Source: Myxococcales bacterium
GTDB taxonomy: Bacteria; Myxococcota_A; Polyangia; Haliangiales; Haliangiaceae
Length of the DNA stretch: 28,758 bases
Assembly (NCBI GenBank): GCA_016706545.1
Contig: JADJJK010000031.1
Span: forward strand, 85,650 to 114,407
Reading direction: 5' to 3'
In this document: positions 2 to 19,911 of the stretch, piece by piece
Layout of the letters: every line of letters begins with the position of its first letter
How positions within the stretch are numbered: the stretch's first letter is position 1
Notes under the pieces: generated by a model
The model's database searches: none
What the model saw: only the letters and a program-made list of their open reading frames with translations
Told to the model about the DNA's origin: nothing
Made by a program: the position numbers and the translations under genes

Positions 2-1447
<1,446 letters not shown>

Positions 1448-1477
1448 AGCGCCGCGCCGCGGTGCCTGTTTTCGTCG

Positions 1478-2210
1478 TCGTCTCTCTCTCTTCTCTCTCT
1501 CAGGTATCTGGGTTCTGAACCAGCAGGGGCTGTGGGCGGTGTGGAGAGGCGCGCAGGCACGCCATCGCCCACGCCGCCCATCCACCGCGTGCGCCTCTCC
1601 AAGGGCTGTGCGTCAACCGCGCCACCTCGCGCCTCACGGCTGCCAAAGCTCGATGGGGCGCGGTTGTCCACAGCCCGCCACCGTCCATAGCCCCGCCATC
1701 GCCGCCCATTCCCCCTCTCTCTCCCTCCCTGGTTCTGGTTCTCTCAACAAAAACAATAGATCTGGTTCTGCGAACCAGCAGGGGCTGTGGGCGGTGTGGA
1801 GAGGCGCGCAGGCACGCCAGCTCCACGCGGCCCACCCACCGCGTGCGCCTCTCCAAGGGCTGTGGACAACCGCGCCACCTCGCGCCTCACGGCTGCCAAA
1901 GCTCGATGGGGCGCGGTTGTCCACAGCCCGCCACTGTCCATAGCCCCGCCATCGCCGCCCATTCCCCCTCTCTCTCTCCCTCCCTGGTTCTGGTTCTCTC
2001 AAATAAAACAATAGATCTGGTTCTGCGACCAGTAGGGCTGTGGGCGGTGTGGAGAGGCGCGCAGGCACGCCAGCTCCACGCCGCCCACCACCGCCTGCGC
2101 CTCTCCAAGGGCTGTGCGTCAACCGCGCCACCCACGCACACCGACGAAGCACTCAGCTCACTGGGCGCGGTTGTCCACAGCCCGCCACCGTCCATAGCCC
2201 CGCCATCGCT
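1478..2210. repeat. Three tandem copies of a ~254-255-bp GC-rich structured unit; copy 3 is truncated at the island junction
   Basis: Units begin at about 1508, 1762 and 2017. Each has a CT-rich/A-rich tail, a palindrome CTGGTTCTGCGAACCAG and a conserved core. Copy 2 has a perfect 20-bp inverted repeat (1856-1875 / 1909-1928). Confidence 0.85.
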
Positions 2211-2226
2211 GTTCACTCGCTCTATC

Positions 2227-2243
2227 TGTGAATCGCATTCACA
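2227..2243. promoter_or_regulatory. Perfect palindrome TGTGAATcgcATTCACA at the start of the low-GC leader upstream of the adenylation operon (candidate regulator-binding site)
   Basis: 7-bp arms with a 3-bp spacer read directly. It lies in the AT-richer leader about 355 bp upstream of the first island gene. Confidence 0.3.
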
Positions 2244-2506
2244 TCGCATCTCGTATTGCCAATCGTCTGCAAGATTGTTAATCTGTGCCGGCAATCAAAT
2301 GGCTATCTCTTCACGTCATAGTAAGGCCGCGCAGCTCACGCTCGAGTCCGCGCGCAAGCCCACCGGCCACGGCGGCTGGCGCCCCGGGGCTGTCGCCGCG
2401 TCGCGGTGGTCAGATTGCCTCAGTGGAACCGCTCGCCGCCATGGGGTAGTTCCGGATCTGACCGCCGCCTATGGCCCGGCGCGAGTCAACGAGAACTGCA
2501 AAACCG

Positions 2507-2533
2507 CCAATAGCTGTTCCCAGTTGCTATTGG
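2507..2533. promoter_or_regulatory. Inverted repeat CCAATAGC-N11-GCTATTGG in the 5' leader of the adenylation gene (candidate operator or RNA stem-loop)
   Basis: Perfect 8-bp arms, about 65 bp upstream of the ATG at 2599. Confidence 0.25.
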
Positions 2534-2598
2534 TGGTTCGCTGTGCGAACCTATCATCCGGGTACCGAATGGTCCCACAACTGTAGCGGCCGCCACGA

Positions 2599-4068
2599 AT
2601 GACTGAAGTCGAGATATCGACAATCGCTCTGATGGTTCGCGAGGCGCTCGATGGGCCTGACCGTCTGTTGGTCGAGGACGGATGGGGGCGATGGGGCCTA
2701 AGCACGTCTCAGACCCTTTCGCTTGCGGAGATGCTCATGGAGGTACTCGGGGACCGGGCCAGTCGACCTCTGGTGGCGTACCTGCAAAAGTCTCGACTCT
2801 ATTACGCATTCACCGCTTGCTGCTTCCTTAACCGCTTGAGTTACTGCCCGATCGATGCATCAAACCCGCTACAGAGGGTGCTCGATGTTGCTGCGCAGTT
2901 GCCAGACGCCATAATTGTCTGCGACAATGAGGAGGTCCTTGCTTCGATCTTGGAGCGAAAGATCGATGGCATCCGCATCAGCGAGGACTTTACCCGGGAA
3001 GATCGAGAGAACCGAGACGCGGTTGCAATGCCCGGGACGAAGAGTCCGCACTATTGTATCGCCACATCCGGTAGCACCGGTACACCGAAGTTGGTGCTGG
3101 TTCCGCATGATCACACGATTCCATTTGTGCGCTGGGCAGTACCCTTCTATAGAATCGGTCAAGGTTGCCGTTGGGCGCAATTCTCAAGCATCGGGTTCGA
3201 CCTTTCGCTCGTTGACTTCTTGTCTGTGGTGTGTGGCGGCGGGGTTCTCATTTCGCTTTCCTCTCAGCTCGACCGCATGCGTCCGGCGCTTGCGGTGAAA
3301 CGATGCCGTATTACCCACTGGCACTCCGTGCCGTCGATGATCCCGTACTTTCTCATCGATTCGGTAGGGGACGATCAGTCCACATGTCAGGTGTTCTCGT
3401 TCTGCGGTGAACCGCTTCAGCGAGCAAATGCAGACAAGCTCATGGCTCGATACCCTGGGGCAAGAATCGTAAATACATATGGTCCAACCGAAGGCACGCT
3501 GTTCTGCTCATTCTTCGAATATCGCCCCAATGACGAGACCGTGGTCGGAGACTTCGTCCCCATCGGACAACCGATACCACCGTGGAACTTCATCCTAATT
3601 CCCGAGGAGCGAGCGGAAAGGCTGGTGCTCATTGCCCCGAACATTGCCGACGGTTATGTCGGAACCGAATCCGCCGCGTTCGCCGCCGTCGATCTGTTTG
3701 GGTTCCGGCTACGCGCTTTCGACACGGGGGACAGGGTGAAGAGGCTTGGGCTACATCTCTATTTTTCACATCGAGTGGACACTATGGTGAAGGTGAATGG
3801 AAATCGCTTAGATCTCGCCGAGGTGGAGGCCGTTGCACAGCGCCTTGGTTTCACCAATCCGATGGCATTCGTGGTGGGAAGCGGAGTAACTTTGGTGGCC
3901 GAAGGAGAGCAAGACGCGGTGACGCTCCTGATCCAACAACTCGGTGAGCACCTGCCGCAGTATGGCGTTCCCAATGTTGTGCGAGTTGTTCCCGCGCACC
4001 CGCGCACCCCAAGCGGCAAGCTCGACCGGCGGGCCGTCCGAAAGTCGCTCGGAGAAAACAGTGAATAG
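2599..4068 (+). CDS. Stand-alone adenylation-domain enzyme (AMP-dependent synthetase/ligase; DltA or NRPS A-domain-like)
   Basis: Core motifs A3 TSGSTGTPKLV, A4 FDLS, A5 NTYGPTE, A7 FDTGDRV, A8 VKVNGNRLDLAEVE, A10 PSGKLDRRA. 489 aa. GC about 50%. Confidence 0.9.
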   Translation: MTEVEISTIALMVREALDGPDRLLVEDGWGRWGLSTSQTLSLAEMLMEVLGDRASRPLVAYLQKSRLYYAFTACCFLNRLSYCPIDASNPLQRVLDVAAQLPDAIIVCDNEEVLASILERKIDGIRISEDFTREDRENRDAVAMPGTKSPHYCIATSGSTGTPKLVLVPHDHTIPFVRWAVPFYRIGQGCRWAQFSSIGFDLSLVDFLSVVCGGGVLISLSSQLDRMRPALAVKRCRITHWHSVPSMIPYFLIDSVGDDQSTCQVFSFCGEPLQRANADKLMARYPGARIVNTYGPTEGTLFCSFFEYRPNDETVVGDFVPIGQPIPPWNFILIPEERAERLVLIAPNIADGYVGTESAAFAAVDLFGFRLRAFDTGDRVKRLGLHLYFSHRVDTMVKVNGNRLDLAEVEAVAQRLGFTNPMAFVVGSGVTLVAEGEQDAVTLLIQQLGEHLPQYGVPNVVRVVPAHPRTPSGKLDRRAVRKSLGENSE

Positions 4069-4321
4069 TGGCACATACGAAATCGCCCGCCGGCTAATTG
4101 CATCTGCGCTCGGCGCGCAGTTGGAGGCGATCGGTCCAACAACAGCCATCTATAAGATTCCGGAATGGGACAGCCTTGGTCAATTGAAGATCGTGGTGGC
4201 CTTGGAGAAGGCGCTCAACGTTAGAATTCTGGATGAAGTGACCTTCGAGTCCCTTGTGAATGTACGAAGAATCGCGGCGTATATCAATAATGTCAGAGCG
4301 GAAAATCACAATGGCAAATGA
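4061..4321 (+). CDS. Small acyl/peptidyl carrier protein (DltC-like), GTG start overlapping the adenylation gene stop by 8 nt
   Basis: Phosphopantetheine-attachment motif EWDSLGQLKIV. About 86 aa. GGAG Shine-Dalgarno 6 nt upstream of GTG 4061. The ORF-track entry 3944-4321 is the same frame with a spurious N-extension. Confidence 0.75.
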   Translation: MNSGTYEIARRLIASALGAQLEAIGPTTAIYKIPEWDSLGQLKIVVALEKALNVRILDEVTFESLVNVRRIAAYINNVRAENHNGK

Positions 4322-5090
4322 GGTAAATTTCGAGGCGGCGGACGGACATGTGGTCCGTGGAACCCATACCCAGGCGCATGCGGAGCGGGGGATGGTCCTG
4401 CTCGTCCACGGCATCACCGCCGATCGCCATGAATGGAGTTTCTTCGACTTTCTAGCAGCGGAACTGCTGGGTCAGGGCTTCAGCTCACTCGCCATTGACT
4501 ACCGAGGGCACGGGGCGTCTTCGATCCCTATTTCGGAATTGAGTCTCGCGGGTGTTGTGCTCGATATCGCTGCGAGTTGGGAATACTGCCTCGAGCGCCG
4601 CCAGAATCCGTCGGCAATCAAGGTGATCGTGGGCAACAGCTTCGGTGGTGGTGCCTCACTCTTGTTCAGCTCATGGAGTGGAGAAATCGATCATGTTGTT
4701 GCCACATGCCCTGTTCTCTCATACGTCGACGACCTCGATCGTGTCAACAGAGCATGGCGGAGTGACCTCCCGACTGGTCGAATTCACTACGCGAGCAAGA
4801 GTCTTCCTTCTTCCATTGTTCCGCAAATGTACCTGTTCGATCTGATGCTGGCGCGGACGACGCGCAACGTGAATCTAACCATTTTCCACGGCACATCGGA
4901 CACCGATGTCCCCATTTTGGCGAGCGAGCAATTTATCGAGAGTCGAGGCAGTGGTAACCTCCACCGGCTCCTAGGAATGGACCATTCGTTCTCAGCACCC
5001 GAAGGAACCGAGAATCGCGCCGCGGTATCGCTTGAATTTCGAAGGCGCGCGGCTCGTGAAATTTCCACCTTTGTCGGAAGCCTCGGGTGA
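4311..5090 (+). CDS. Alpha/beta-hydrolase fold protein (thioesterase or acyl-transfer candidate); alternative in-frame starts at 4290 and 4260
   Basis: HG oxyanion motif (LLVHGITADRHEW), nucleophile elbow GNSFGG, and catalytic Asp/His candidates (TSDTDVP, MDHSF). The ATG at 4311 overlaps the carrier-protein stop (TGA 4319-4321). Confidence 0.8.
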   Translation: MANEVNFEAADGHVVRGTHTQAHAERGMVLLVHGITADRHEWSFFDFLAAELLGQGFSSLAIDYRGHGASSIPISELSLAGVVLDIAASWEYCLERRQNPSAIKVIVGNSFGGGASLLFSSWSGEIDHVVATCPVLSYVDDLDRVNRAWRSDLPTGRIHYASKSLPSSIVPQMYLFDLMLARTTRNVNLTIFHGTSDTDVPILASEQFIESRGSGNLHRLLGMDHSFSAPEGTENRAAVSLEFRRRAAREISTFVGSLG

Positions 5091-5695
5091 TGCTCACCAT
5101 TACCGAACCTCTTTTTCTTGCCGAACCTCGTAGTTGGCCCGAGTGGGACATCTCGCTCGGAGCCTTTGTGACTGTTGAAGCGAGTCCTGAAGCTCCCGTG
5201 AGAATCAGTCCCAGGTGCCGTGTAGGGCACCATGTCTACATTGGCTCGGCTGTAACGCTATGTAATGGAGTCCGACTTGACACCATGAGCTTTGTTGGCG
5301 CTCGAACGACAATCGGAGAGGGCTCCGCAGTTCACAGCGTGAAGGTATTCGAAGCAGTGACGATTGGTCGCAACACGTTTATTGGGGGAGATGTGTCTAA
5401 CTGGACCATCATCGGCGATGATGTGACCTTCATGGGGCGAATCGTGCATACCTATCGGAAGGCCGGAGGCAGGGATGACTGGGTGGGCGCAGGACCACAG
5501 CCATCGCCCCGGATTGGGGATAAGGCGATCATCGGTGAGAACGCGCTTCTTATCGGTGGCATTGATATTGGCCGCGGTGCGTACGTGTCGGCCGGGGAGG
5601 TCGTCAAGTACGATGTTCCCGCCGGGCACCTTGCGATCAACGGAGAACTCATTCCTCTCTCTGCCTTCCGCGGGTTCATCAAGAGTCGCGAGTAG
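5087..5695 (+). CDS. Hexapeptide-repeat (left-handed beta-helix) acyltransferase
   Basis: Repeated [LIV]-G-x-x-x-x hexads (VYIGSAVTLCNGVRLD, VFEAVTIGRNTFIGGDV, IGDKAIIGENALLIGGIDIGRGAYVSAG). ATGA start/stop overlap with the upstream gene. Confidence 0.8.
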   Translation: MMLTITEPLFLAEPRSWPEWDISLGAFVTVEASPEAPVRISPRCRVGHHVYIGSAVTLCNGVRLDTMSFVGARTTIGEGSAVHSVKVFEAVTIGRNTFIGGDVSNWTIIGDDVTFMGRIVHTYRKAGGRDDWVGAGPQPSPRIGDKAIIGENALLIGGIDIGRGAYVSAGEVVKYDVPAGHLAINGELIPLSAFRGFIKSRE

Positions 5696-5709
5696 GGCAC
5701 GAGGCCCGT

Positions 5710-6852
5710 ATGAAACTGCGAGTGTTCGTCAGCCATAGTTTTCATGCCGAGCACCACCTGCACGGCAAGCTTGATGGTTTTCGTAACTCTGTGGATGCTG
5801 CTCGGGTTGAGGTGCTGTCGCATGCCAAACTGGGGTTGCGGGATGTCTCAATTGATCTCCACTTTGAGGATACGGCGATTGGACAGTTGCTACCTGCGCG
5901 GACACGAATAGACATCGAATGCGCTGACATCTTCATAATCGATATTTCAGCCCGCACTGCGAACACATTTTTTGAACTCGGGTATGCTCGTGCTTTGGGT
6001 GTGGAAACAATTGTGATTCAACAACGCTCTATCCAAGAATCGATTCCGGCGAACGTGGCCGACCTTCTTGTCGGATTCTATGGGACCACAGATGAGCTAC
6101 GGCAGATTGTCGCGAGGCGACTCAGCGAGATTCTGGGAGATGTGGCGTCCTTGGGCGCGAGCCGACCGCGCGACCGATGTTTCTGGTTCGAACCGGATGT
6201 TAGAGAGGTGCATATCGTGTGTGGCAGCGAGCCTGAGGCGACGCGATTTGCCAACCGGGACTCCGACGACTACTTGCTTATCGACAACTTTGACGACCGC
6301 GATGCTCTCTTTGCGCTGAGCACCTTGCTGTCTCGCGCATACCCGAACGCGAACTTGGTCCGCCACACCTCGGCGAACCTGCCCCCGGACATCTACCACT
6401 CCAATCTGGTTCTTGTTGGTGGCCCTCTTACAAATCGTGTCGCCGCGGAGATGATGGCGGAACTTAACGTGAAAGTTAGATACCTTGATGGCGACGATGG
6501 CATTGAGTTTCAGGGGCCACGTGGGCTTGAGATCGTACGATCCCAGCGGGATGCGTCAGGTGTGATCGTTGCAGACGCAGGGTATTTTGGCCGTTTTCGG
6601 AACCCATTTGCGCGTCGGAACCGCATCATCATGTGCCAGGGATGCCATACATTCGGAACGCTCGCAGCGAGTGCCATCCTTGCGGACGACAATCAGGCGC
6701 AGGACAACGCACGCTACCTTGAGAAGCTTTCCGGTGTAGATGCCCGAGCAATCGCTCGAATAGAGTGCGTATTCTCAGTCCGAGTTCTCACTAACCGACG
6801 GGTACTGCCTGCAGCCGTCACCGAGCCCTTAACATTTGTACATGTTTCTTGA
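5710..6852 (+). CDS. Two-domain protein: N-terminal TIR/NDT-like (flavodoxin-fold) domain plus C-terminal Rossmann-like domain with SLOG/LOG-like glycine motifs
   Basis: N-terminal: VFVSHSF...DLHFEDTAIGQLL...ADIFIIDISARTANTFFELGYARALG, matching the TIR / nucleoside 2-deoxyribosyltransferase-like pattern with a conserved Glu. C-terminal: LVLVGGPLTN...IIMCQGCHTFGTLAASAIL resembles the LOG/SLOG GGxxG...PGGxGTxxE motifs. GAGG Shine-Dalgarno; 14-bp gap after the LbH gene. Domain calls are motif-level only. Confidence 0.65.
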   Translation: MKLRVFVSHSFHAEHHLHGKLDGFRNSVDAARVEVLSHAKLGLRDVSIDLHFEDTAIGQLLPARTRIDIECADIFIIDISARTANTFFELGYARALGVETIVIQQRSIQESIPANVADLLVGFYGTTDELRQIVARRLSEILGDVASLGASRPRDRCFWFEPDVREVHIVCGSEPEATRFANRDSDDYLLIDNFDDRDALFALSTLLSRAYPNANLVRHTSANLPPDIYHSNLVLVGGPLTNRVAAEMMAELNVKVRYLDGDDGIEFQGPRGLEIVRSQRDASGVIVADAGYFGRFRNPFARRNRIIMCQGCHTFGTLAASAILADDNQAQDNARYLEKLSGVDARAIARIECVFSVRVLTNRRVLPAAVTEPLTFVHVS

Positions 6853-7509
6853 CAGCCGATGACGGATTTCTTTTCGGAAGAAGAACGTAAGATATTCGTT
6901 GATGTCTTTCGCCATCGGGATGTAATGCTCAATCGAGCGTTCAGCGTCTGCAAGGAGTCCAATGTTCACGTGGTCAACGATGTATCCGCGAGTGTCAAGT
7001 GCATGTGTGAGGATGGCAATATCGATCGCCCAGTTATTCGGCAAGTCGACTAGTGCGAAATCGCATCGGTTAAACAGGTAGGTGCCGCTTAGAGGGAGAG
7101 GGATGGTGTCCCATTCCGGACGGTACAGCTGAAAGAATGGACGAACGACGAGGTTCGTTACCGGAAATGTGTCGTAGGGAGAGTGGAAGATCCCGCGCTT
7201 GAGTGCATGCTTGGGGCCAGTTCGGAGCAAGTCTACCCACTCAGTTTGCCAGTCCCTGATGTCCGCATCGGTCCGAAGCACCAGGTCCTCTCGAGCAGCG
7301 CTCATGCCGACCTTCATTGCGCAGCCGAGACCAACGTCAAGGCACTGAAGTACACGAGCCCCGGCTTCACTGGCCTGCTCAGCTGTGTGATCATCCGATG
7401 CGTTATCGACAACAATGACCTCGCTGACGAGCTTGCTGTCGAGCAAGCGCCGCACAACACTACCAACAGTCTCCTGCTCATTCCGGGCTGGCACTACAGC
7501 TGAAATCAT
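6829..7509 (-). CDS. Family-2 glycosyltransferase (GT-A fold; dolichyl-phosphate-sugar synthase-like)
   Basis: ISAVVPARNEQETVGSVV...EVIVVDNASDDHT...LRTDADI (DxD). GGAG Shine-Dalgarno before the ATG at 7509. 3' end converges with and overlaps the upstream gene by 24 bp. Confidence 0.85.
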   Translation of the reverse strand: MISAVVPARNEQETVGSVVRRLLDSKLVSEVIVVDNASDDHTAEQASEAGARVLQCLDVGLGCAMKVGMSAAREDLVLRTDADIRDWQTEWVDLLRTGPKHALKRGIFHSPYDTFPVTNLVVRPFFQLYRPEWDTIPLPLSGTYLFNRCDFALVDLPNNWAIDIAILTHALDTRGYIVDHVNIGLLADAERSIEHYIPMAKDINEYLTFFFRKEIRHRLSRNMYKC

Positions 7510-7891
7510 GAAATCTCCAGATACGAGGCGGGCACGTGAGACAGTGCGCAGGGTCTTGCGCTTGGAAGCTCAAGCGACTTCATCATGACAACCGGAATTC
7601 TCTCTAGCCGTAGGCGCCAGCTGTGCAGGCGCAGATCTTGCGGCTTCACTTGAATTTTGGCATGAGTTAGTTGTACTGGCATACGGTAAGCTCAGAAATT
7701 CGCTGTGGGAGAAACGAAAGTAGTGTCATGGAGGTTCCGCTACGAAAATCGACTCGGTCGCAACCGCCAAGCCTGGTTGCAGTTCAGACTGAGAGTGAGG
7801 TTCTTTCCTCCAATAGACTTGGCGAGTTTCGCGCGATCGTCACTGTCAAATCGTGCGGTGTGAGAGTGTTGTGATCGCCATCTTCGGCTCC

Positions 7892-8869
7892 CTAGATTCT
7901 CTTTTGCTCGACCAGCCTGCGGTAGTGCTCGCCCAGCAACGTCAGCTTGCAGGCCTTGCTTTCCATGGCCGCGTGCCACATGTGAGGCGCGTCAACGGGC
8001 ACGACTAGGTTTACTCGGTTGTACTTCTGGAGAATCGCAAAGACATGCGTGTGCTCAGGATTGGGTGGTGGCATCCCTGGCTTGCGCCCTTGCATCTCCG
8101 GCTCATACGTTGGGTCCAGTGAAAACCGATACCCCGGCGCTGGAAAGAACTCAGCAATACGTTGAAGCTCCGCAAGACTGATCGAGGGAATCGCCTTCCT
8201 GAGCGACACAAAGCTCTTAACGTTGGTCTTGAAGATGGGGCGCTGATCCCAAGGCCCAAGTGATTGATCAATGTGCGCGTATACACTTCCCGGCGTGATA
8301 TCTCCGACGAGATTGGCGGCACTTCCGACCAGAGCATCTGCAAATAGCGCTGTAAACACGCCGCTCCCATTGCGTTCGGACGCATATTGCTCTGACGTCG
8401 ACGCCGTAAGAATCGTAGTCCCTTCCTTGAGCTCGGCAGTCGAAACGGCTTGGCCTCCAGGACTTCCGGCAATCCCGGAGTGGCAGCTATCCAGCGCAAT
8501 GACCTTGTTCTTCGAGCGTGAGTTATTGGCCAAGATCAGGATCTCAGAGAGAGAGACGCCTTCATCGCCACGGCGAGAGTCGGAGGCCAGGAGGTAGCCG
8601 CCCGTTGCCTCAATGTGTCCGTGACCCGCAAAGTAGAGGAGAGCAATCTCGTCATCCGTCGAGAAAAGCTCCTCGATCGAGTCTTTCAGCTCCGCACGCG
8701 GAACCTGGTCGTTCGGGCTCGTACCCGTTAGCGGCTTTACGGCGAAGTTAACCGTGCCATCGGCGTTTCGTTCAAGCAGTGGCTTAATCGAGTGTGCGTC
8801 GTTGACACATCCGTGCAGCGGTGATGTGTGCTCGTAATAATCAATCCCGACGACCAGCGCTTTGCGCAT
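7892..8869 (-). CDS. Caspase-like peptidase (C14 / caspase-HetF-type p20 domain) with a ~90-aa C-terminal extension
   Basis: [10 protein letters not shown]...GCVNDA...LLYFAGHGH (catalytic His)...IALDSCHSG (catalytic Cys). Strong GGGAGGG Shine-Dalgarno. Lies 26 bp downstream of the TIR-like gene on the same strand. Confidence 0.85.
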
Positions 8870-8895
8870 TGTCCCTCCCTTGCTTACGTGCGTAT

Positions 8896-9282
8896 CTACA
8901 GCGACTTAATGAATGTTGCGATGTTGTCCCAGGTCCAATTAACGATCTTTATGCCGCTGAGTTCTGCCGGAAGACTAGTGGGGCGATTGTCCGCGGAGCA
9001 GTAGACACCAAGGAGCCTTCGCCCCTCGGCCTTGGCGCATGAGGCTTCCCACAGTGCGCCATCCCCCTTCGTTGTGTTCTTGCTAACGAGTACGATCACG
9101 CCATCGCACCCCTTGATGCGGGAACGACAATTTGTCTTCCACTTCTCGTCCCAGGGCTCCTTCACGGACATGTCCACGAACTCGAACGGCGTGCTTTCAT
9201 TCTTGGATTGTCCCACCAAGAAGTCCCGTGACGTCTTGTCCTCGATGGCGAACGCAATAAAGACCCGCTTCTTCCCGGACAT
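8896..9282 (-). CDS. Small stand-alone TIR-like domain protein (ThsB / DUF1863 / MTH538-type)
   Basis: [16 protein letters not shown]...[36 protein letters not shown] fits the TIR-like architecture (betaA VFISF, S-x-W-x-x-E helix, conserved Glu). 128 aa. AGGGAAG Shine-Dalgarno. Confidence 0.75.
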
Positions 9283-10420
9283 ACTGCTTCCCTTTCTTCG
9301 ATGCGCTAGATGGCGTGCTTCGGAACCGCGTCAACGATACTCTGAGTGTTTCAGGCGACCATTTCGCTGGCGACGTCTTGCACGGCTCGGGAGGCTCGCT
9401 CGTTCCCGCGTGGATGTATCCGGACGATCGGCTTGTCGTACGACATGGCGATCTCGCTCTCTTCCTGCATCCAGCCAGAGTGCGATGCATACACGCCAGA
9501 GAGCATTATTAACACGATGTGGACTGGCCGAGAGTGGCGGTCCAAGCCCGCGCGTAGCTGCGCGCCGGTCCCACCATGAAGTGGTCGTGTTGAGGGACCG
9601 AGAACTGGGCAGCATGCCGACACCGGAACGTCGCCAATGTGTCCTCGAACGGTGTCGTCCGCGGTGTCGAAGTCACCACTCGCAGTGAGGAACTCTGCCG
9701 AACGCACCTCAGGTAGACTCAGAATGTAGAACACTCCCGTAGACTCACTGGCAATCCCTCCGGGAGGGTTAGGTGCTGGGGGATTAAGCACTGGGAGTGT
9801 TCCGGCGAGCTGGCGATTCCAACAGTATCACGGGGGATGGCGCGTAGGGAGGTTGGGAAATTCGCTCGATCGTGATCACCCAAACCAGTCCATCGCGATC
9901 CACCGATGTGGTCCATCGCGATCAGTGGCCCGACCAGTAGGAGAGGAGAGTACTCGATGGCAGGATGATGTCCCTGGACCGCGGAGGGGAAGCCGCGAAA
10001 AGACGGAAGGAATCGAGCGAGAGACGACTGTTGTCCCGATGTTGGATCCCGAAGTCGTGAGGGCGCTTGGGGAGCCCTTTCCTCGGTGTAGGACAAGCTG
10101 TCACCACCGGCCTCCGAGGGTCCCATTTCCACCGCCATCACCGGTGACCTGGGGCCTACCCGATGGGAGCCATCTCGGTGTGGTCGCGAGACGGGGTCAA
10201 GGGTCGCTCCGACGACGAGCGCAGCGAGCTTGCCCTTGAGGCCGGCGCGCGACCGCACCACTCTCGCCGGTGGGGGTGGGCCCCTGGTCCCGGTGGTTCT
10301 GCTACCCTCGATCGTCGGCGGCGACAACAAGCCGCGGCGTAAGTCTGCGTGATCTCGTCGACCTTCAAATCCATACGGATTTGAGCTGCCGTCTACAGTG
10401 ACGACTAACCGTTAGGGGCG

Positions 10421-11875
10421 CTAGCGCGCGCTCATAGGTAGGATCTTAGGACCGGCCTCCGAGGAGGACCGGCCGGGAGATCCCGGGGGGATCGACAAGC
10501 GACAACGACAGCCTTCACCCTGCGGTTACCACACCCAGCACACGGAGACTGCGTTGTCTACCCCGCACCTTACCAGGATGCGGACGGCGCTCGCACGCGC
10601 GCTGTCCGCCGATGATGTCAACCAGCTCGGCCGTGACACCGGCCAGAGCGAGAGGCTGCGAACGGTCACGCCGCACCGCCTGTTCCTCTCGACCGTCGCC
10701 GCGCTCGCCGGTGGGAAGGTCGAGTCCCTCGCGGACCTCCTCCGCGAGTTCAATCATCAGAACCAGGTCACCGTCGCCTACAAGGCGTTCTACAACCGCC
10801 TCGCTCGACCCGGCTTCGCGAGCTTCATGCAGCAGATGTTCGCGCGGCTCGTCGAGAGGGGGGGGGCTGAGCGTCCGGATGCTCGAGCCCGAGGGGCACG
10901 CCGCCGTTGCTCGATTCAAGGACATCGTGATCCAGGACGGCTCTTCGTTCGCGCTCAAGAAGACGCTGCAGCACGTGTTTTCGGGACGGTTCACGAACCG
11001 CGAGCCAGCCGCGGTCGAGGTCCACGCGACCTACAGCGGATTCTCCGACGAGGTGTCCACGGTCTCGATCGCTTCGGACAGCGAGGCTGAGCGCCAGTTC
11101 CTACCCGCGCCGTCGACGCTGGCTGGGCGCCTGCTTCTTGCAGATCGTGGCTATCCCAGCACGCAGTACTTCGACGCGGTTCGCGCCCACGGTGGGAGCT
11201 TCATCGTGCGGCTCAGCCGAAGCCACGACCCGTGGGTGTCGGCCGCGTGGGTGCAGGGCAAGCAGGTGCTGCTGAGAAAGCCGACGCGGCTGTCGCGGTT
11301 CATCGAGCGGAACTCCAATCGCCGGATGGATCTCGACGTCGAGTACGAGAGAGGAAAGGACGTATTGCGCTTCCGCGTCATTGTTCTGCCCGGCCGGGAA
11401 GCGACGATGACCCGGCTCTGCACGAACCTTCCGCGCACACCGTTCTCCCTCGACCTCGTGTCGCGGCTGTACCGCTTCAGGTGGCAGATCGAGCTGCTCT
11501 TCAAGGAATGGAAATCCTACGCGAACCTCCACAAGTTCAACACCGCCAACGAACACATCGCCGCGGGCCTGATCTGGGCCAGCCTCTGCGCCGCCGTGCT
11601 CAAGCGCTTCTTGGCTCACGCCGCTGAGCTCGTCGGCGGCAGGGCAATGTCTACCCGACGCGTGGCGATGTGCGCCGCCCACATCATCGACGAACTGGCG
11701 GCCGCGCTCCTCGCCTGCATCAGCATCGCGGCCGCGTTCAGCGACGGCCTGGCGTTCCTCCTGGCCAACGCCCGCCGCTCGAACCCTGTCCGCGACCGCA
11801 AGACCGGGCGCCTACGGGCCGGCCTGGTCACCGTCGGGGCCCGTTCCTAAGTGATCGCCTATGAGCGCGCGCTAG
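10421..11875 (+). mobile_element. IS4-family insertion sequence (about 1.45 kb) with ~30-bp imperfect terminal inverted repeats
   Basis: Left end CTAGCGCGCGCTCATAGG...CTTAGG (10421-10450). Right end CCTAAG...CCTATGAGCGCGCGCTAG (11846-11875); the 18-bp core is a perfect reverse complement. Encodes a DDE transposase. No clear target-site duplication is visible. Confidence 0.85.
10554..11850 (+). pseudogene. IS4-family DDE transposase split by a +1 frame change in a G9 homopolymer (10858-10866)
   Basis: N-terminal part in frame 0 (10554..~10866). The remainder is in frame +1 (..11850) with LLLADRGYPSTQYF...SFIVRLSRS and RWQIELLFKEWKSYANL (YREK region). Removing one G joins the two into a ~430-aa transposase. 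Confidence 0.8.
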
Positions 11876-12044
11876 CGGCCGCGGCTGCCAGGCCCATTCG
11901 TCGGAGCTGCGCGTCCGTGTGCTGGCCACCGGACTGGCCACGTATCCCGACGTGACCGTGGTCTGCCAGCGCGCAGAGTAGGCGCGCGGTCGCGACAGGC
12001 GGTCGCAACGCTGAGAGTCACCGGGACAGTGATAGCGTGACGCC

Positions 12045-13744: not shown

Positions 13745-15025
13745 ATGATCAAGATCACGCTTCAGAGGTCGTTTGTCGCAGGCCGCGCGAGCCGCGCGCT
13801 GCAGGCGATGATCGTGATGGCCGCGACGGCCGCGACGGCCGCGAGTGGCTGCGGCCCCAGGGTGTCGCCTGCGCAGGTGCCAGCCGAGCCGCCGCCGCAG
13901 GTCGCGCCGGACTCACCGGCGCCGCCGGCGGCCAGCGCGCGCGCGTCCGCGAAGGTGCCCACCTCGCCGCGGGGCGTTGACGCGGCCGACCGTGAGCCCG
14001 CAGGGCCCGAGGAAGGAGGCGTCGCGGGACCGGACGCGACCGAGGCGCCCGCTGCGCAGGGCGAGCCAGCGAGCGCAAGGGCACCGGCGCTGGTGGCGCT
14101 GGCGGCGGCGCTCACCGAGGCGAAGGTCAGTGTGCTGGAGATGTCGCCGCTAGAGCACGAGTGCGCCAACCTGCCAGCGCGGGCGACCCTGATCTCGATG
14201 AACCTGCCCGGATCGGCGCAGGACTGCGCGGTCGGGCAGGGCAGGAGCGTGTGTGTGCCCGCTGTCCGCAGGCCGGACAAGCTGCGCCAGACGCTGTGCG
14301 GGGCCGGCATGTCGGCGAAGCCAGCGGGCTGGCCGCCGGCGCTCGAGCGGGCGCTGGATCCGCTGGTCCGCATGGGTTGGCGGGTTCGCCCGATGGACGG
14401 GCGCGGAGCGCCGCCCGCGCTGGCTGCGTATGATCCCATGGGCGCGGTGAGCCTGCTGGTGAGCGACGGCGTCTCCTGGCAGGTGATGAGCGAAGCGCTG
14501 CCCTCGACGGAGGAGCAGGGCCCGCACGCTGGGCCACGGGCGGTGATGCGCGCTGCCGGGCTGGGCCACGGCGCGAAGTACGCGGTGGTGATCGACGAGT
14601 ACGAGGGCGGCAGCGAGAGCGGGTGGCAGACCACCTGGCTGTTCATCTTGTGCGGCGAGGGGCTGGAGTTGACCGTGTGTACGCGCAAGGCCATTGGCGC
14701 GCTGGTGTGGAGCCTTGGGCCCGGCGAGCGAGCGGCGTACCGGCGCGGCGGCGCGAGCCTGACCCGGCGTCCGCACCTGGCGGTGTCGTTGGCGCCGAGC
14801 CTGGCCGCGAACGCGACGACCTTGCGGCTCAAGCTGACCCGGCGGACCTTGCCGGCGAAGCTGCGCGATCGCTTCCAGCTCACCCCACCGGAGTGTGAGC
14901 CCTCCGGCGATCCGCTGGAGCCCGGGAGCTGCGATCCGTGGTCGGCCATGGACGCGCTGCGCGCCGACGCCGGGGATTGGCGCTTCGACGGGCAGGCCCT
15001 CGTGCGCGCTGGCAGCGAGCGGTGA
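13745..15025 (+). CDS. Hypothetical lipoprotein (Pro/Ala-rich linker plus Cys-containing globular C-terminal domain)
   Basis: Signal peptide with lipobox (MAATAATAASGC). GAGG Shine-Dalgarno 3 nt before the ATG. The competing 433-aa minus-strand ORF is Ala/Ser/Arg low-complexity and looks like an artefact. Confidence 0.55.
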   Translation: MIKITLQRSFVAGRASRALQAMIVMAATAATAASGCGPRVSPAQVPAEPPPQVAPDSPAPPAASARASAKVPTSPRGVDAADREPAGPEEGGVAGPDATEAPAAQGEPASARAPALVALAAALTEAKVSVLEMSPLEHECANLPARATLISMNLPGSAQDCAVGQGRSVCVPAVRRPDKLRQTLCGAGMSAKPAGWPPALERALDPLVRMGWRVRPMDGRGAPPALAAYDPMGAVSLLVSDGVSWQVMSEALPSTEEQGPHAGPRAVMRAAGLGHGAKYAVVIDEYEGGSESGWQTTWLFILCGEGLELTVCTRKAIGALVWSLGPGERAAYRRGGASLTRRPHLAVSLAPSLAANATTLRLKLTRRTLPAKLRDRFQLTPPECEPSGDPLEPGSCDPWSAMDALRADAGDWRFDGQALVRAGSER

Positions 15026-15079: not shown

Positions 15080-15123
15080 CAGTTGCCGGTCAGTTGCCGG
15101 TCAGTTGCCGGTCAGTTGCCGGT
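15080..15123. repeat. 11-bp tandem repeat (cagttgccggt)x4 spanning the stop codon of the sugar dehydrogenase gene
   Basis: Four perfect head-to-tail copies read directly. The unit length is not a multiple of 3. Confidence 0.9.
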
Positions 15124-16605
15124 CTGCGCCGGCTGGCGCTCGAGCTTCCACACCGTGCCGGTGAGGCTGACCAGGTACAGCTCGCCGTCGCTGTCGGTGC
15201 CAAAAGAGGAGATCTGTGAGAGCACGGCGCGGCGATCTAGCGCCGCACGCCAGTCCCAGTGGTCGCGGGCCCAGCCGGTGCGTTGGCCGCTGCCGGCGGC
15301 GGTGTCGCCTGGATCGCGCGTGAAGCGAAAGCTGCGCAAGAGGCTCGTGCAGTAGTCGGCGTAGAAGTAGGCGCCGGCCAGCTCGGGCAGGGCCTTGCCG
15401 CGATACACGACGCCGCCGGTGATCGAGCAACCCTCGTCGTGGGAGTACTCGGCGATCGGCGGCGTCAGGCCGCGTCGGTCGCAGGTGCGCGCGTTGTAGC
15501 AGTGGTTGCCCTCGGCGATGTTCCAGCCGAAGTTGTGGCTACGCGGGTCGCCGCCACCGACGACGTGAACGGACTCCCAGCGGCTCTGGCCGACGTCTCC
15601 GATGAACAGGTCGCCGGTCTGGCTATCAAAGGCGAAGCGCCACGGGTTGCGCAGGCCCCAGTGGACCAGCTCCGCGGCGGGCCGCCCTTTGCCGCCTGCG
15701 CCGCCTGCGCTGCCTGCGCCGACGCCGCCTTTGCCGCCTGCGCCGACGCTGCCTGCGCTACCTGCGCCGACGCTGCCTGCGCCGACGCCGTCGACGTCGA
15801 GGCGCAGGAGCTTGCCGAGGAAGGTCCTGCGGCTCTGGCCCGAGCCCTTGGGATCTCCCGCCGAGCCGCCATCGCCGAGCCCGGTGTACAGCTTGCCGTC
15901 GGGGCCAAAGGCGAGGTGGCCGCCGTTGTGGTTGGCGTAGGGCTGGTCCACCGCGAGCAGCTCGCGCGCGCTGGCTGGCTCCACCTGCGTGCGCGCGGAG
16001 TTGGCGCGATACTCGACGATGCGCGTGTCGCCAGCGCGGTCGGTGTAGTGGACATAGAGCTTGCGGTTGTCCGCGTAGCGCGGGTGAAACGCCAGGCCCA
16101 GGAGGCCCTGCTCGTTGCTGGTCGACACCTTGCCGATCAGATCGAGGAAGCGCTCCTTGCGCACGACGCCGCCTTCGAACACGCGGATGGCGCCGGCTTG
16201 CTCCACCACATACAGGCGCCCCGGCTCGCCGGGCGCCGCGGTGACCAGCACGGGCCGGCGCAGGCCGGACATCACCTTGGTCAGCCGCAACGTGGCTGCC
16301 AGCGCGGCGGGCACCGGCGCCAGCGCGTCGCTGCCAGGCGGGGGCCGCGTTGCCGCCGCCGCCCTCGCAGCAGCGCCCGGAGCCGGGGCCGGAGCCGGAG
16401 CCGGCGGCGTGGCCGGAGCCGTCGCCTTGGCCGGCGCGGCGCGCGCCGCGGCGGTGGCGGTCATCGGCGCCGGCTCGGAGGTAGGCGGCACATCGAGCGG
16501 TTGCGCTGAGACGGTGCTCCTCTCCGAGGAGCACGCGAGGCAGAGCCAAAGCAGAGCAGGAAGTCTGGCACGCACAGCCTCACCATGTCGCCACCTGGCC
16601 GGCAA
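15112..16605 (-). CDS. PQQ-dependent soluble glucose/sorbosone dehydrogenase-family beta-propeller lipoprotein (YliI/GSDH-like) with an inserted Gly/Ala/Ser repeat
   Basis: LGLAFHP, NHNGGHLAFGPDGKLY, GKLLRLD, GLRNPWRFAFD, GDLFIGDVGQSRWE, HNFGWNIAEG. Signal peptide with LAC lipobox. Internal (GAGSVGAGSA)n insertion encoded by nucleotide tandem repeats at about 15690-15790. Confidence 0.85.
   Translation of the reverse strand: MPARWRHGEAVRARLPALLWLCLACSSERSTVSAQPLDVPPTSEPAPMTATAAARAAPAKATAPATPPAPAPAPAPGAAARAAAATRPPPGSDALAPVPAALAATLRLTKVMSGLRRPVLVTAAPGEPGRLYVVEQAGAIRVFEGGVVRKERFLDLIGKVSTSNEQGLLGLAFHPRYADNRKLYVHYTDRAGDTRIVEYRANSARTQVEPASARELLAVDQPYANHNGGHLAFGPDGKLYTGLGDGGSAGDPKGSGQSRRTFLGKLLRLDVDGVGAGSVGAGSAGSVGAGGKGGVGAGSAGGAGGKGRPAAELVHWGLRNPWRFAFDSQTGDLFIGDVGQSRWESVHVVGGGDPRSHNFGWNIAEGNHCYNARTCDRRGLTPPIAEYSHDEGCSITGGVVYRGKALPELAGAYFYADYCTSLLRSFRFTRDPGDTAAGSGQRTGWARDHWDWRAALDRRAVLSQISSFGTDSDGELYLVSLTGTVWKLERQPAQTGN

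Positions 16606-17710: not shown

Positions 17711-17714
<4 letters not shown>
16689..17714 (-). CDS. Isocitrate/isopropylmalate dehydrogenase family protein (likely NAD-dependent isocitrate dehydrogenase); probable ATG start at 17702
   Basis: VTLIEGDGIGPEI, NVALRQQFDLYANVRP, VHGTAPDIAGRGVANP. 4-bp overlap with the upstream regulator gene. Confidence 0.9.
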
Positions 17715-19312
<1,598 letters not shown>

Positions 19313-19332
19313 CGGGATGGAACGGCCATTGC

Positions 19333-19911
19333 GTGGTGGTGGCGGGCATGGACAAAGACCTCGACCCGCAGACGATCACCGCCGCGACTCGGCAGTACGT
19401 GCGCGCCATCGCGCTGCGCATCGTCAAAGATCCGGCTGACGCGGAGGACGTCGCGCAGGACGCGCTGATCCTGGCGTTTCGCTATCGCGACTCGTTCCGA
19501 GGCGACTGTCGGTACTGCACCTGGCTGCATCGTGTCACCCAGACCGCGGCGCTGATGTTCCTGCGCAAGCGGCGCCGGTACCGACGCGAGCTTGGCGAGG
19601 CGGCCCAGGACGGCCAGGACGGCGGCGCCGAGCCCGCGCGCGACGACGGCGCCTCGCTCCTGGCGCGGGCCTCCACGCCTGCGACGGCGGACAAGGTGCT
19701 GGCGTGCCGCGAGGAGCTGGCGCGGACGCGGCAGGTGGTCGCTCGCCTGGGGCGGCGGTACCCCGAGGTGTTCTGGATGCGCTATGGCGAGGGCTACACC
19801 GAGACGGAGATCGCGCGCGCGCTGGGGCTCTCGCTGGCGACGGTGAAGACGCGAGCGCACCGCGCCAAGCTGGCGGCCCAGGCGGCCTGCCCGGAGCGCG
19901 CGGCGGCGTAG
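19333..19911 (+). CDS. ECF-type RNA polymerase sigma-70 family factor
   Basis: Region 2 (DAEDVAQDALILAFRY...FRGD...TWLHRVT) and region 4 HTH (YTETEIARALGLSLATVKTRAHRA). Divergent from the NtrC-like gene. Confidence 0.85.
   Translation: MVVAGMDKDLDPQTITAATRQYVRAIALRIVKDPADAEDVAQDALILAFRYRDSFRGDCRYCTWLHRVTQTAALMFLRKRRRYRRELGEAAQDGQDGGAEPARDDGASLLARASTPATADKVLACREELARTRQVVARLGRRYPEVFWMRYGEGYTETEIARALGLSLATVKTRAHRAKLAAQAACPERAAA

Follow-up and report, generated by a model that had tools for sequence, protein, structure and literature searches.

In a 28,758-nucleotide stretch of a Myxococcales genome (GenBank assembly GCA_016706545.1, contig JADJJK010000031.1, positions 85,650 to 114,407 of the forward strand; referred to below as the window), three head-to-tail copies of a non-coding unit of ∼254 bp lie directly behind the gene of a sigma-54 activator, and the core of each copy can fold into a near-perfect three-way junction. 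In our preferred reading the copies are three paralogous structured non-coding genes, that is sibling small RNAs (sRNAs), in a tandem array that is young and lineage-specific and has a layout like that of the myxobacterial Pxr locus. Weighing the evidence presented below, we give this reading a probability of about 0.37.

The array begins 60 bp past the stop codon of the activator gene, which encodes an FHA domain and a sigma-54 activation domain. Tandem Repeats Finder returns a single array (1517–2209; period 253, 2.7 copies, 91% matches, score 1150), and a repeat search of the window finds three in-register copies at a spacing of 253–255 bp. Alignment of the copies places the unit starts at 1508, 1762 and 2017, exactly where an earlier note on this DNA, made from the letters alone, had put the starts of a triplicated element, and the final base that the copies have in common at 2210. 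The inter-copy identity is 91–99%, the edge copy being the most diverged, and the G+C content of the array is 0.68–0.73. The location proposed in the note was also correct: the array is situated between the activator gene and a block of low G+C content that begins exactly at the break in copy 3. No second site was found in the window by repeat search, unit comparison or covariance model, and only chance 9–13-mers of the unit occur elsewhere in it.

Each unit starts with a palindrome, P0 (17 nt in copy 2), that is followed by a core of ∼168 nt and, after copies 1 and 2, by a spacer (Table 1). In the core, a 16 bp outer helix P1 (GGGGCTGTGGGCGGTG/CACYGTCCATAGCCCC) encloses a 13 bp helix P2 (TGGAGAGGCGCGC/GTGCGCCTCTCCA) with a loop of 34 nt and a 20 bp helix P3 (GGGCTGTGGACAACCGCGCC/GGCGCGGTTGTCCACAGCCC) with a loop of 33–34 nt. 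Only 0, 1 and 2 bases are left unpaired at the junction, which is thus a near-perfect three-way junction. P0, P2 and P3 had all been noted earlier, but P1 had not, and the junction was missed for this reason. The replaced P3 loop of copy 3 and the DnaA-box sequence in P3, both described below, are likewise additions to the earlier description. The palindrome CTGGTTCTGCGAACCAG, which had been attributed to the copies in general, is perfect in copy 2 only; copy 1 has CTGGGTTCTGAACCAG instead, as had been recognized, and copy 3 lacks one A, leaving a stem of 5 bp. The GC stem GGAGAGGCGCGC...GCGCCTCTCC was recovered in all three copies and extends to 13 bp with one G·U pair. The 20 bp inverted repeat is indeed perfect in copy 2 and carries an internal mismatch in copies 1 and 3, while its true coordinates (1857–1876/1910–1929) are one base off those first given.

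The spacer is ∼65–70 nt long (∼85 nt if the 17 nt palindrome is counted) and consists of a CU-rich tract CCCCCTCTCTCTCCCTCCCT, two CTGGTTCT motifs and an A-rich patch CAACAAAAACAATAGAT. Six of the eight copies of CTGGTTCT in the window are inside the array, where they form direct repeats at both unit ends. Host-type DNA in the window hardly ever contains A-rich patches of this type, and CCUCC-like motifs cluster in the tails of the units. The pyrimidine/A-rich tail previously ascribed to each copy is present in copies 1 and 2 and absent from copy 3, which ends at 2210, where the G+C content per 100 nt drops from 0.68 to 0.48. Copies 1 and 2 differ in the length of the CU-rich tract, by one CT unit. 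The complement of this tract (1698–1735 and 1951–1990, minus strand) reads GGGAGGGAGAGAGAGGGGGAATGGG and fits the canonical G-quadruplex motif, which is defined by four runs of at least three G separated by loops of 1–7 nt. The tract may be slippage-prone DNA of non-B form.

That the element is highly structured, as had been claimed, is amply confirmed by folding. The plus-strand RNA of unit 2 folds with −133.8 kcal/mol, compared with −94.5 ± 4.5 kcal/mol for shuffled sequences (z = −8.8), and none of 200 shuffles was as good. For the minus-strand RNA of the same unit z is −5.7, and when the core is folded as single-stranded DNA z is −9.1 for the plus strand and −7.8 for the minus strand. In the three-copy alignment, standard pairs are found in 95.8% of the pair cells, compared with 39–51% if the 3′ partners are slid by 1–3 columns. 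Three nested inverted repeats, each different and each near-perfect, are very unlikely to have arisen neutrally, and the ancestral single unit therefore probably had a structural role, be it in the form of RNA or of single-stranded DNA. Its triplication is a recent event that need not be of any consequence, although it may be.

Signs of structural constraint from a comparison of the copies are weak. Variable columns make up 4 of 98 in the core helices and 5 of 34 in the P2 loop (Fisher P ∼0.05). An earlier Fisher test on the raw minimum-free-energy structure (P = 0.005) was discounted, as it counted the replaced loop of copy 3 as many independent events. This P3 loop is identical in copies 1 and 2 (33 nt), whereas in copy 3 it has 34 nt and differs at 21 of 34 aligned positions, with the flanking stems unchanged. 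It is a block replacement rather than the result of point mutation, and it hints at a diverged donor copy elsewhere. In P3 of copy 2, GGAC stands where copies 1 and 3 have GCGTC, a complex change by which the palindrome becomes perfect. This reads as the template-switch correction of a quasi-palindrome, and such a correction would imply that the hairpin forms in DNA. All four non-Watson–Crick positions in P1 and P2 are G·U pairs on the plus strand and none is A·C. In one case a C-to-U change private to copy 2 turns a G-C pair into G·U, and the pair is kept. This wobble pattern favours the plus strand, although four sites to none amounts to only P ∼0.06.

The array does not encode a plausible protein, in agreement with the earlier note. 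The open reading frames (ORFs) across it are flat in G+C from the first to the third codon position (0.68/0.66/0.70 in one case) and have no match in Pfam, and the reading frame is shifted by indels between the copies. Minus-strand ORFs that start past the GA-rich tract were considered as candidates and rejected on the same grounds, since they too shift frame from copy to copy. Two further candidates were discarded: a guide or antisense role of the loops, for which the window offers only chance matches of 10–12 nt, and a viroid-like or ribozyme-bearing multimer, as no self-cleaving ribozyme family was detected by Rfam.

The activator gene extends beyond the left end of the window and is an FHA-type enhancer-binding protein (EBP) with an AAA+ domain and a Fis-type helix–turn–helix (HTH). 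Its closest homologs are 75–77% identical, and several of those at ∼70% come from named Kofleriaceae metagenome-assembled genomes (MAGs). Through the closest homologs we reached six loci, five of them with DNA (L007, L008, L009, L011 and L012) and one with gene calls only (P0011), to which L013 was added. The upstream order of a protein kinase gene, a ∼550-aa gene and the activator gene is common to L007, L009 and P0011, and a similar gene of 486–588 aa directly precedes the activator gene in all fetched loci, including L013; both features support orthology of the loci. Just beyond the activator gene, all five loci with DNA have a correctly spaced sigma-54 (−24/−12) promoter (Table 1). In L007, L008 and L011 it precedes the gene of a conserved, Cys-rich secreted protein of ∼245 aa that belongs to no Pfam family and is 57–70% identical between loci, and P0011 has a gene of this size at the equivalent position. 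Activator, promoter and secreted protein form a compact activator-plus-target module in these loci. The window contains neither such a sigma-54 promoter nor a remnant of the ∼245-aa gene, and its downstream synteny with L007 is lost. From this comparison we conclude that the array sits in the slot of the activator's ancestral target module. Upstream of the promoters of L008 and L009 there are short tandem repeats, which may be binding sites of the activator. In the window, the linker between the AAA+ domain and the HTH of the activator is encoded by a 9 bp in-frame tandem repeat (CGCGTCTGG × 5.9, 97% matches, 1171–1232) that specifies Gly, Ala and Ser, so that this linker is possibly variable in length.

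On the right-hand side, copy 3 is followed by 90 bp with 48% G+C. The window is of high G+C content (∼0.72), with 0.55 in the low-GC block at ∼2250–9500. The missing tail of copy 3 does not occur elsewhere in the window, which led us to reject the idea that the island had split one unit. No part of the unit or of the junction sequence is repeated at the far side of the block, and no direct or inverted repeat joins the two ends of the block. The top-strand GC skew is negative over the activator gene and the array and positive from ∼12 kb onwards regardless of gene orientation; the cumulative GC-skew minimum of the window adjoins the array. The activator gene of L007, by comparison, is flanked by negative skew to its left and right. 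The change of sign, the uniform skew in L007 and the loss of downstream synteny together suggest that the array, the low-GC block and a nearby insertion sequence (IS) mark a rearrangement breakpoint, resulting from an inversion or another rearrangement, rather than an origin. The IS (10416–11880) is ∼8 kb from the array, between the low-GC block and host-type DNA; it has a DDE_Tnp_1 transposase gene (10612–11850) and inverted repeats of 62 nt (74% complementary).

If the array consists of sibling sRNA genes, each unit would give an RNA with a ∼168 nt body, a very stable three-way junction in which P1 surrounds P2 and P3, and, in the spacer, a single-stranded CU-rich tract that resembles an anti-Shine–Dalgarno sequence and would be the likely pairing surface for G-rich ribosome-binding sites. 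Transcription would proceed in the plus direction, as for the activator gene, a strand that is favoured because every imperfect pair in P1 and P2 is G·U there. The array would probably have grown through the short direct repeats of its spacers, CT runs and CTGGTTCT, between which slippage or unequal recombination took place. It would have taken the place of the sigma-54 promoter and the secreted-protein target gene of the activator, and its right end would later have been cut by the event that brought in the low-GC block. One may go further and propose a new family of regulatory RNAs of ∼170–250 nt built on a three-way junction, which would have arisen in a Kofleriaceae-like myxobacterium and form, with the activator, an independent Pxr-like module outside the Pxr clade, the exchanged loop of copy 3 determining specificity; we regard this extension as doubtful.

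Tandem structured non-coding repeats and sibling sRNAs are known as a kind, even if this element is itself an orphan. The pxr locus, known from Myxococcus and Cystobacter, lies downstream of a sigma-54 regulator gene, encodes three stem-loops and occurs as tandem paralogs in Cystobacter; Pxr is ∼108 nt long with consecutive stem-loops, its activator is the response regulator Nla19 and it is confined to the Cystobacterineae (PMC5568312). As in that system, we find a myxobacterial non-coding locus directly 3′ of, and co-directional with, a sigma-54 activator gene, with three helices per unit and three tandem paralogs that differ mainly in their loops. The differences are considerable. Where Pxr has three consecutive stem-loops, the core here is a closed three-way junction of ∼168 nt, and the units have no sigma-54 promoter. 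The activator is an FHA-type EBP without a receiver domain, for which orthology to nla19 is unlikely, and the lineage is Kofleriaceae-like and thus outside the Cystobacterineae. Moreover, no Rfam family was matched even at E values up to 10, with the presence of a Pxr model in Rfam not confirmed. Sibling sRNAs commonly arise by tandem duplication, examples being OmrA/B, PrrF1/2 and AbcR1/2 (PMC4211561), and they share with our array the head-to-tail arrangement of similar non-coding units in one intergenic region and the alternation of variable and conserved segments. Known siblings are, however, 80–150 nt in length and have a promoter and a Rho-independent terminator, while the units here are ∼254 bp, no promoter was found and terminator-like hairpins occur only on the strand that is disfavoured by the wobble pairs.

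Relatives of the unit were sought in a range of collections. Rfam gave nothing at gathering scores, and at E values up to 10 it returned only microRNA (miRNA) precursor noise, which is due to the long hairpins (best score 31 bits, with a gathering score of 87). An invariant 20-mer from the P3/P1 arm, when scanned as an exact sequence against 185,579 species genomes, gave six chance matches of 20–29 nt, none of which extends; an Armatimonadetes MAG accounts for one and Actinomycetota for the other five. In metagenomes, another invariant 20-mer, taken from the P2/P3 junction, had one chance match, in a contig of 46% G+C. The AMP-binding protein of the island, looked up as an exact sequence, is not on record, and with 77% identity for the best homolog of the activator the host genome is not among the collections. 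Two scans of viral contigs and blastn searches of plasmids and phages did not match the unit. A covariance model of the core, applied to the window and six related loci (106 kb), recovered only the three copies, and blastn of the related loci (∼78 kb) found nothing similar downstream of the activator gene.

Several of these and other results weigh against sibling sRNAs. With no homolog in Rfam or in any collection searched, the element is by sequence an orphan and hence offers no evidence of conservation. No sigma-70-type promoter was found on either strand at 1300–2700, in a scan that may miss promoter types of this lineage, and no site at 1448–2600 matches the sigma-54 pattern TGGCAC-N5-TTGCW with at most two mismatches; the nearest look-alike, AGGCACGCCAGCTCCA, has three, including the −12 G. 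No terminator was found on the plus strand of the units, which conflicts with the G·U argument. Read on the minus strand, P0 and the ATCTATTGTT behind it have the score of an intrinsic terminator, in copies 2 and 3 only. In 1.4 kb there are three terminator-like sites, compared with 0.4 expected, and the host DNA in the rest of the window does not depart from the chance level. The arguments on the strand are thus in conflict, terminators pointing to the minus strand and wobble pairs to the plus strand. Across the three copies there is not one compensatory change: 48 of the 56 pairs are invariant and one GC pair changes to GU. The absence of a covariation signal is explained by the copies being too young to yield it, and the constraint statistics likewise draw on no more than a dozen or so mutational events, from three copies of recent origin. 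Helices of such length and near-perfection are seen more typically in inverted-repeat DNA than in RNAs that bind proteins. Mobile or accidental DNA would be equally at home in this setting, at a break in synteny with a horizontally acquired block and an IS alongside. An array of small RNAs, which is one of the identities offered in the earlier note, is accordingly a possibility that has to be set against the missing promoters on both strands, the terminator-like hairpins on the minus strand of two copies and the noise in Rfam.

One competing explanation starts from the sequence of P3. Its 3′ arm contains TTGTCCACA in every copy (1664–1672, 1917–1925 and 2171–2179, plus strand), and in copy 2 the 5′ arm contains the reverse complement TGTGGACAA (1861–1869, with TTGTCCACA on the minus strand). 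TTGTCCACA perfectly matches the high-affinity DnaA box of Mycobacterium tuberculosis and Streptomyces coelicolor (PMC4285127, Table 1), a consensus that may not be that of the host. The window has four perfect boxes, all of them inside the array and within 520 bp; a shuffled unit has 0.0025 perfect boxes on average, and unit 2 has four sites with at most two mismatches (P = 0.002). Matches at 7 of 9 positions are CTCTCCACA, in every copy, and CTGTCCATA, in copy 2. The four perfect boxes are nevertheless copies of one 9-mer that was noticed post hoc and are not independent. The unit could on this basis work as single-stranded DNA of a mobile or replicative element, as a single-strand initiation site of the A-site type, at which DnaA on the box would load helicase and primase, or as a hairpin substrate of an HUH/Y1 enzyme (REP, IS200-like end or origin of transfer), and the array would be a leftover of the element that delivered the neighbouring low-GC block. 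In an A-site, a hairpin of single-stranded DNA that has a DnaA box in its stem loads DnaB through the ABC primosome (Masai 1990; Carr & Kaguni 2002; both via PMC6127211), and the perfect 20 bp P3 hairpin predicted for copy 2 resembles this arrangement. The strong folding of the core as DNA on both strands, near-perfect stems that are conserved in sequence without covariation, the iteron-like CTGGTTCT repeats with an A-rich GATC patch in the spacer, the presumed quasi-palindrome correction in copy 2 and the position of the array, which adjoins the block of 55% G+C and has an IS at a distance of 8 kb, are all compatible with it. Known A-sites, however, are single hairpins on plasmid or phage replicons, whereas here we have a junction arm, present three times, in chromosomal DNA that lacks replicon genes in the vicinity. 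The 3×2 internal loop of copies 1 and 3 falls within the box, so that only one of the three hairpins has an intact duplex box. No replication, relaxase or transfer gene is present in the ORF annotation of the window, and the same holds for rep, integrase and Y1 transposase genes. The G+C content of the array is host-like and not island-like, the covariance model found no second copy in 106 kb, and neither plasmids, phages nor viral contigs gave a match. We consider a function as single-stranded DNA unlikely. It is far less probable still that the boxes mark a replication-control locus, be it the chromosomal oriC or a DnaA-titrating box cluster. The concentration of perfect boxes in the array, the additional 7/9 matches, the skew minimum beside it and short A-rich patches between the units would fit, but dnaA, dnaN, parAB and other origin-linked genes are absent from the window, the boxes are not independent and the patches measure only 17 nt. 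L007 has neither a skew switch nor a box cluster, so that this position is not an ancestral origin, and the change in skew is explained equally well by rearrangement. A chromosomal origin was rejected on gene content and on the GC skew of L007.

Alternatively, the array may be a functionless minisatellite in which slippage or unequal crossing-over made three copies of a structured intergenic segment while rearrangements removed the promoter and target gene of the activator, and which is too young to have decayed. The segment could derive from a composite terminator or from a regulatory region in decay. The high identity of the copies with divergence at the edge is as in young tandem arrays, the orthologous position in the relatives holds a sigma-54 promoter, and the array lies at a break in synteny and GC skew beside the island and the IS. 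The earlier note had anticipated that a unit found only here, not transcribed and conserved nowhere else, would probably be a local duplication without function. Within the collections searched the unit is found only here, and promoter, covariation and homolog are all lacking, as such a duplication predicts. This uniqueness points towards local duplication, yet the unit folds far too well for an accident. Neutral change does not produce nested inverted repeats of 16, 13 and 20 bp (z ∼ −9), the helices are spared by the differences between copies, and the loop exchanged in copy 3 is almost as long as its counterpart. As a possible trace of the source we examined a likeness between GAGGCGCGCA-GGCACGCCAGCTCCAC in P2 and the L007 promoter region GAGGCGCGCATGGCATGGCAGGTGCAC (local-alignment score 27, P ∼0.008, uncorrected for nine tests). 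It is absent in comparisons with L008 and L009 and is lost on correction for multiple testing, and we rejected it as a promoter vestige and keep it as a weak lead only. Minisatellites or variable-number tandem repeats such as the mycobacterial interspersed repetitive units (MIRU) are similar in being intergenic head-to-tail arrays of high identity with a diverged edge copy and CT-dinucleotide length variation; they differ in their period, 10–100 bp compared with 254 bp, and the fold of the present unit is statistically exceptional. A functionless array is in our view a credible, though doubtful, explanation. Two proposals of the earlier note found no support. Repetitive extragenic palindromes (REPs) and their mosaics (BIMEs), as well as miniature inverted-repeat transposable elements (MITEs), resemble the unit in being GC-rich, intergenic, imperfectly palindromic and non-coding DNA capable of forming hairpins. 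REPs are, however, 20–40 nt in length and occur in hundreds of dispersed copies, often with a RayT transposase gene nearby, and MITEs have terminal inverted repeats and target-site duplications. The window instead has one head-to-tail array of 254 bp units with no terminal inverted repeats, no second site in 106 kb and no adjacent transposase, and no window ORF matches a RayT/Y1 transposase (Y1_Tnp, IS200-like). An integration hotspot, with the units as repeated attachment sites and the island inserted in copy 3, would account for the abrupt end of this copy exactly at the drop in G+C, and palindromes with short direct repeats could serve as binding sites of a recombinase. The island has no integrase or recombinase gene and no definable end, though, and its far end shows neither a direct repeat nor the tail missing from copy 3; moreover, head-to-tail 254 bp units without cargo are unlike the products of serial integration. 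Such an attachment-site region is very improbable.

Returning to sibling sRNAs, transcription of the units would make them a second, independent myxobacterial case of tandem structured sRNAs behind a sigma-54 activator gene and a natural comparison with Pxr on the birth of such regulators. The comparison would be useful because the ancestral state of the locus, a promoter and a secreted-protein gene, is known from the relatives. An array of DnaA-box hairpins, on the other hand, would be unusual as a remnant, within a chromosome, of the priming of single-strand replication. If neither applies, the locus is a clean example of a structured intergenic segment amplified at a rearrangement breakpoint, and it advises caution in inferring function from fold stability alone. 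In every reading the element is at present an orphan of a single genome.

Table 1. Features of the array, its flanks and the orthologous loci. Positions in the lower five rows refer to the respective locus.
Feature	Positions	Strand	Remarks
Activator gene, 3′ part: FHA, sigma-54 AAA+, Fis-type HTH (EBP)	2–1447	+	Pfam FHA, Sigma54_activat, AAA_lid_14, HTH_8; stop at 1447
Terminator-like hairpin GCGCCGCGCCGCGGTGC then CTGTTTTCGT	1449–1475	+	Terminator scan; directly after activator stop
CT-rich leader	1476–1507		Diverged inter-unit spacer without A-rich patch; aligned with tails of copies 1 and 2
P0, copy 1	1508–1523		Degenerate palindrome CTGGGTTCTGAACCAG
Core 1	1526–1694	+	P1 16 bp, P2 13 bp, P3 20 bp with 3×2 internal loop; covariance model 189.7 bits
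Spacer 1	1695–1761		CU-rich CCCCCTCTCTCTCCCTCCCT, two CTGGTTCT, A-rich CAACAAAAACAATAGAT containing GATC
P0, copy 2	1762–1778		Perfect 7 bp palindrome CTGGTTCTGCGAACCAG; on the minus strand ATCTATTGTT follows, terminator-like score
Core 2	1781–1947	+	P1 1781–1796/1932–1947, P2 1797–1809/1843–1855, P3 1857–1876/1910–1929 (perfect 20 bp); 189.9 bits
Spacer 2	1948–2016		Parts as in spacer 1, plus one extra CT and CAAATAAAACAATAGAT
P0, copy 3	2017–2032		CTGGTTCTGCGACCAG, 5 bp stem; terminator-like on the minus strand
Core 3	2034–2201	+	Junction as in the others; 34 nt P3 loop ∼2133–2166 replaced, stems identical; 172.4 bits
Last bases common to all copies	2202–2210		CGCCATCGC; array break at 2210/2211
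Junction to low-GC block	2211–2598	+	Palindrome TGTGAATCGCATTCACA, promoter-like site, decayed ORF
L007, sigma-54 promoter	11352–11367	+	TGGCATGGCAGGTGCA
L008, sigma-54 promoter	3355–3370	+	TGGCATGGCTGCTGCA
L009, sigma-54 promoter	∼11609–11624	+	TGGCATGAGGAATGCA
L011, sigma-54 promoter	∼7448–7463	+	CGGCACGCTCGATGCA
L012, sigma-54 promoter	∼6738–6753	−	TGGCACGCACCGTGCT

The junction between the array and the first island gene contains the 17 nt palindrome TGTGAATCGCATTCACA (2227–2243), which resembles a CRP/FNR site but has a 7 nt spacer, and a promoter-like TTGCCA-N17-TAATCT (2256–2284) that was read by eye. The decayed ORF at 2300–2586 has no coding signature and no family match; its start, MAISSRHSKAAQLTLESARKPTGHGGWRPGA, is similar to the N-termini of some IS200-like transposases of myxobacteria, but a transposase remnant found no support. 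Even the best homologs of the first island gene do not exceed 55–56% identity; they are DltA-like enzymes of unrelated phyla, with a Candidatus Korobacteraceae MAG as the one named match, so that the limits and origin of the island cannot be set by comparison.

The part of the low-GC block at 2599–7509 encodes a stand-alone DltA-like adenylating enzyme, an alpha/beta hydrolase, a hexapeptide acyltransferase, a 380-aa protein without a family and a family-2 glycosyltransferase, and it looks like a horizontally acquired cassette for the modification of a surface polymer. On the minus strand of the same block, a caspase-like Peptidase_C14 gene (7892–8869) is directly followed by a small ThsB/TIR-like gene (8896–9282; PF08937, E = 5e-7), a pair that looks like an anti-phage or conflict system.

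Further into the window, a perfect 11 nt tandem repeat (CAGTTGCCGGT × 4.1, 100% matches, 15080–15124), the period of which is not a multiple of three, is located between the convergent genes 13745–15025 (plus) and 15112–16605 (minus) and overlaps the 3′ end of the latter. The region 17711–19911 contains a second sigma-54 activator gene, which is on the minus strand, encodes 533 aa with a paralogous AAA+ domain and is divergent from a gene for a sigma factor of the extracytoplasmic function (ECF) type (19333–19911). Between the two lies TGGAACGGCCATTGCG (19318–19333), which resembles a sigma-54 promoter with two mismatches to the pattern.

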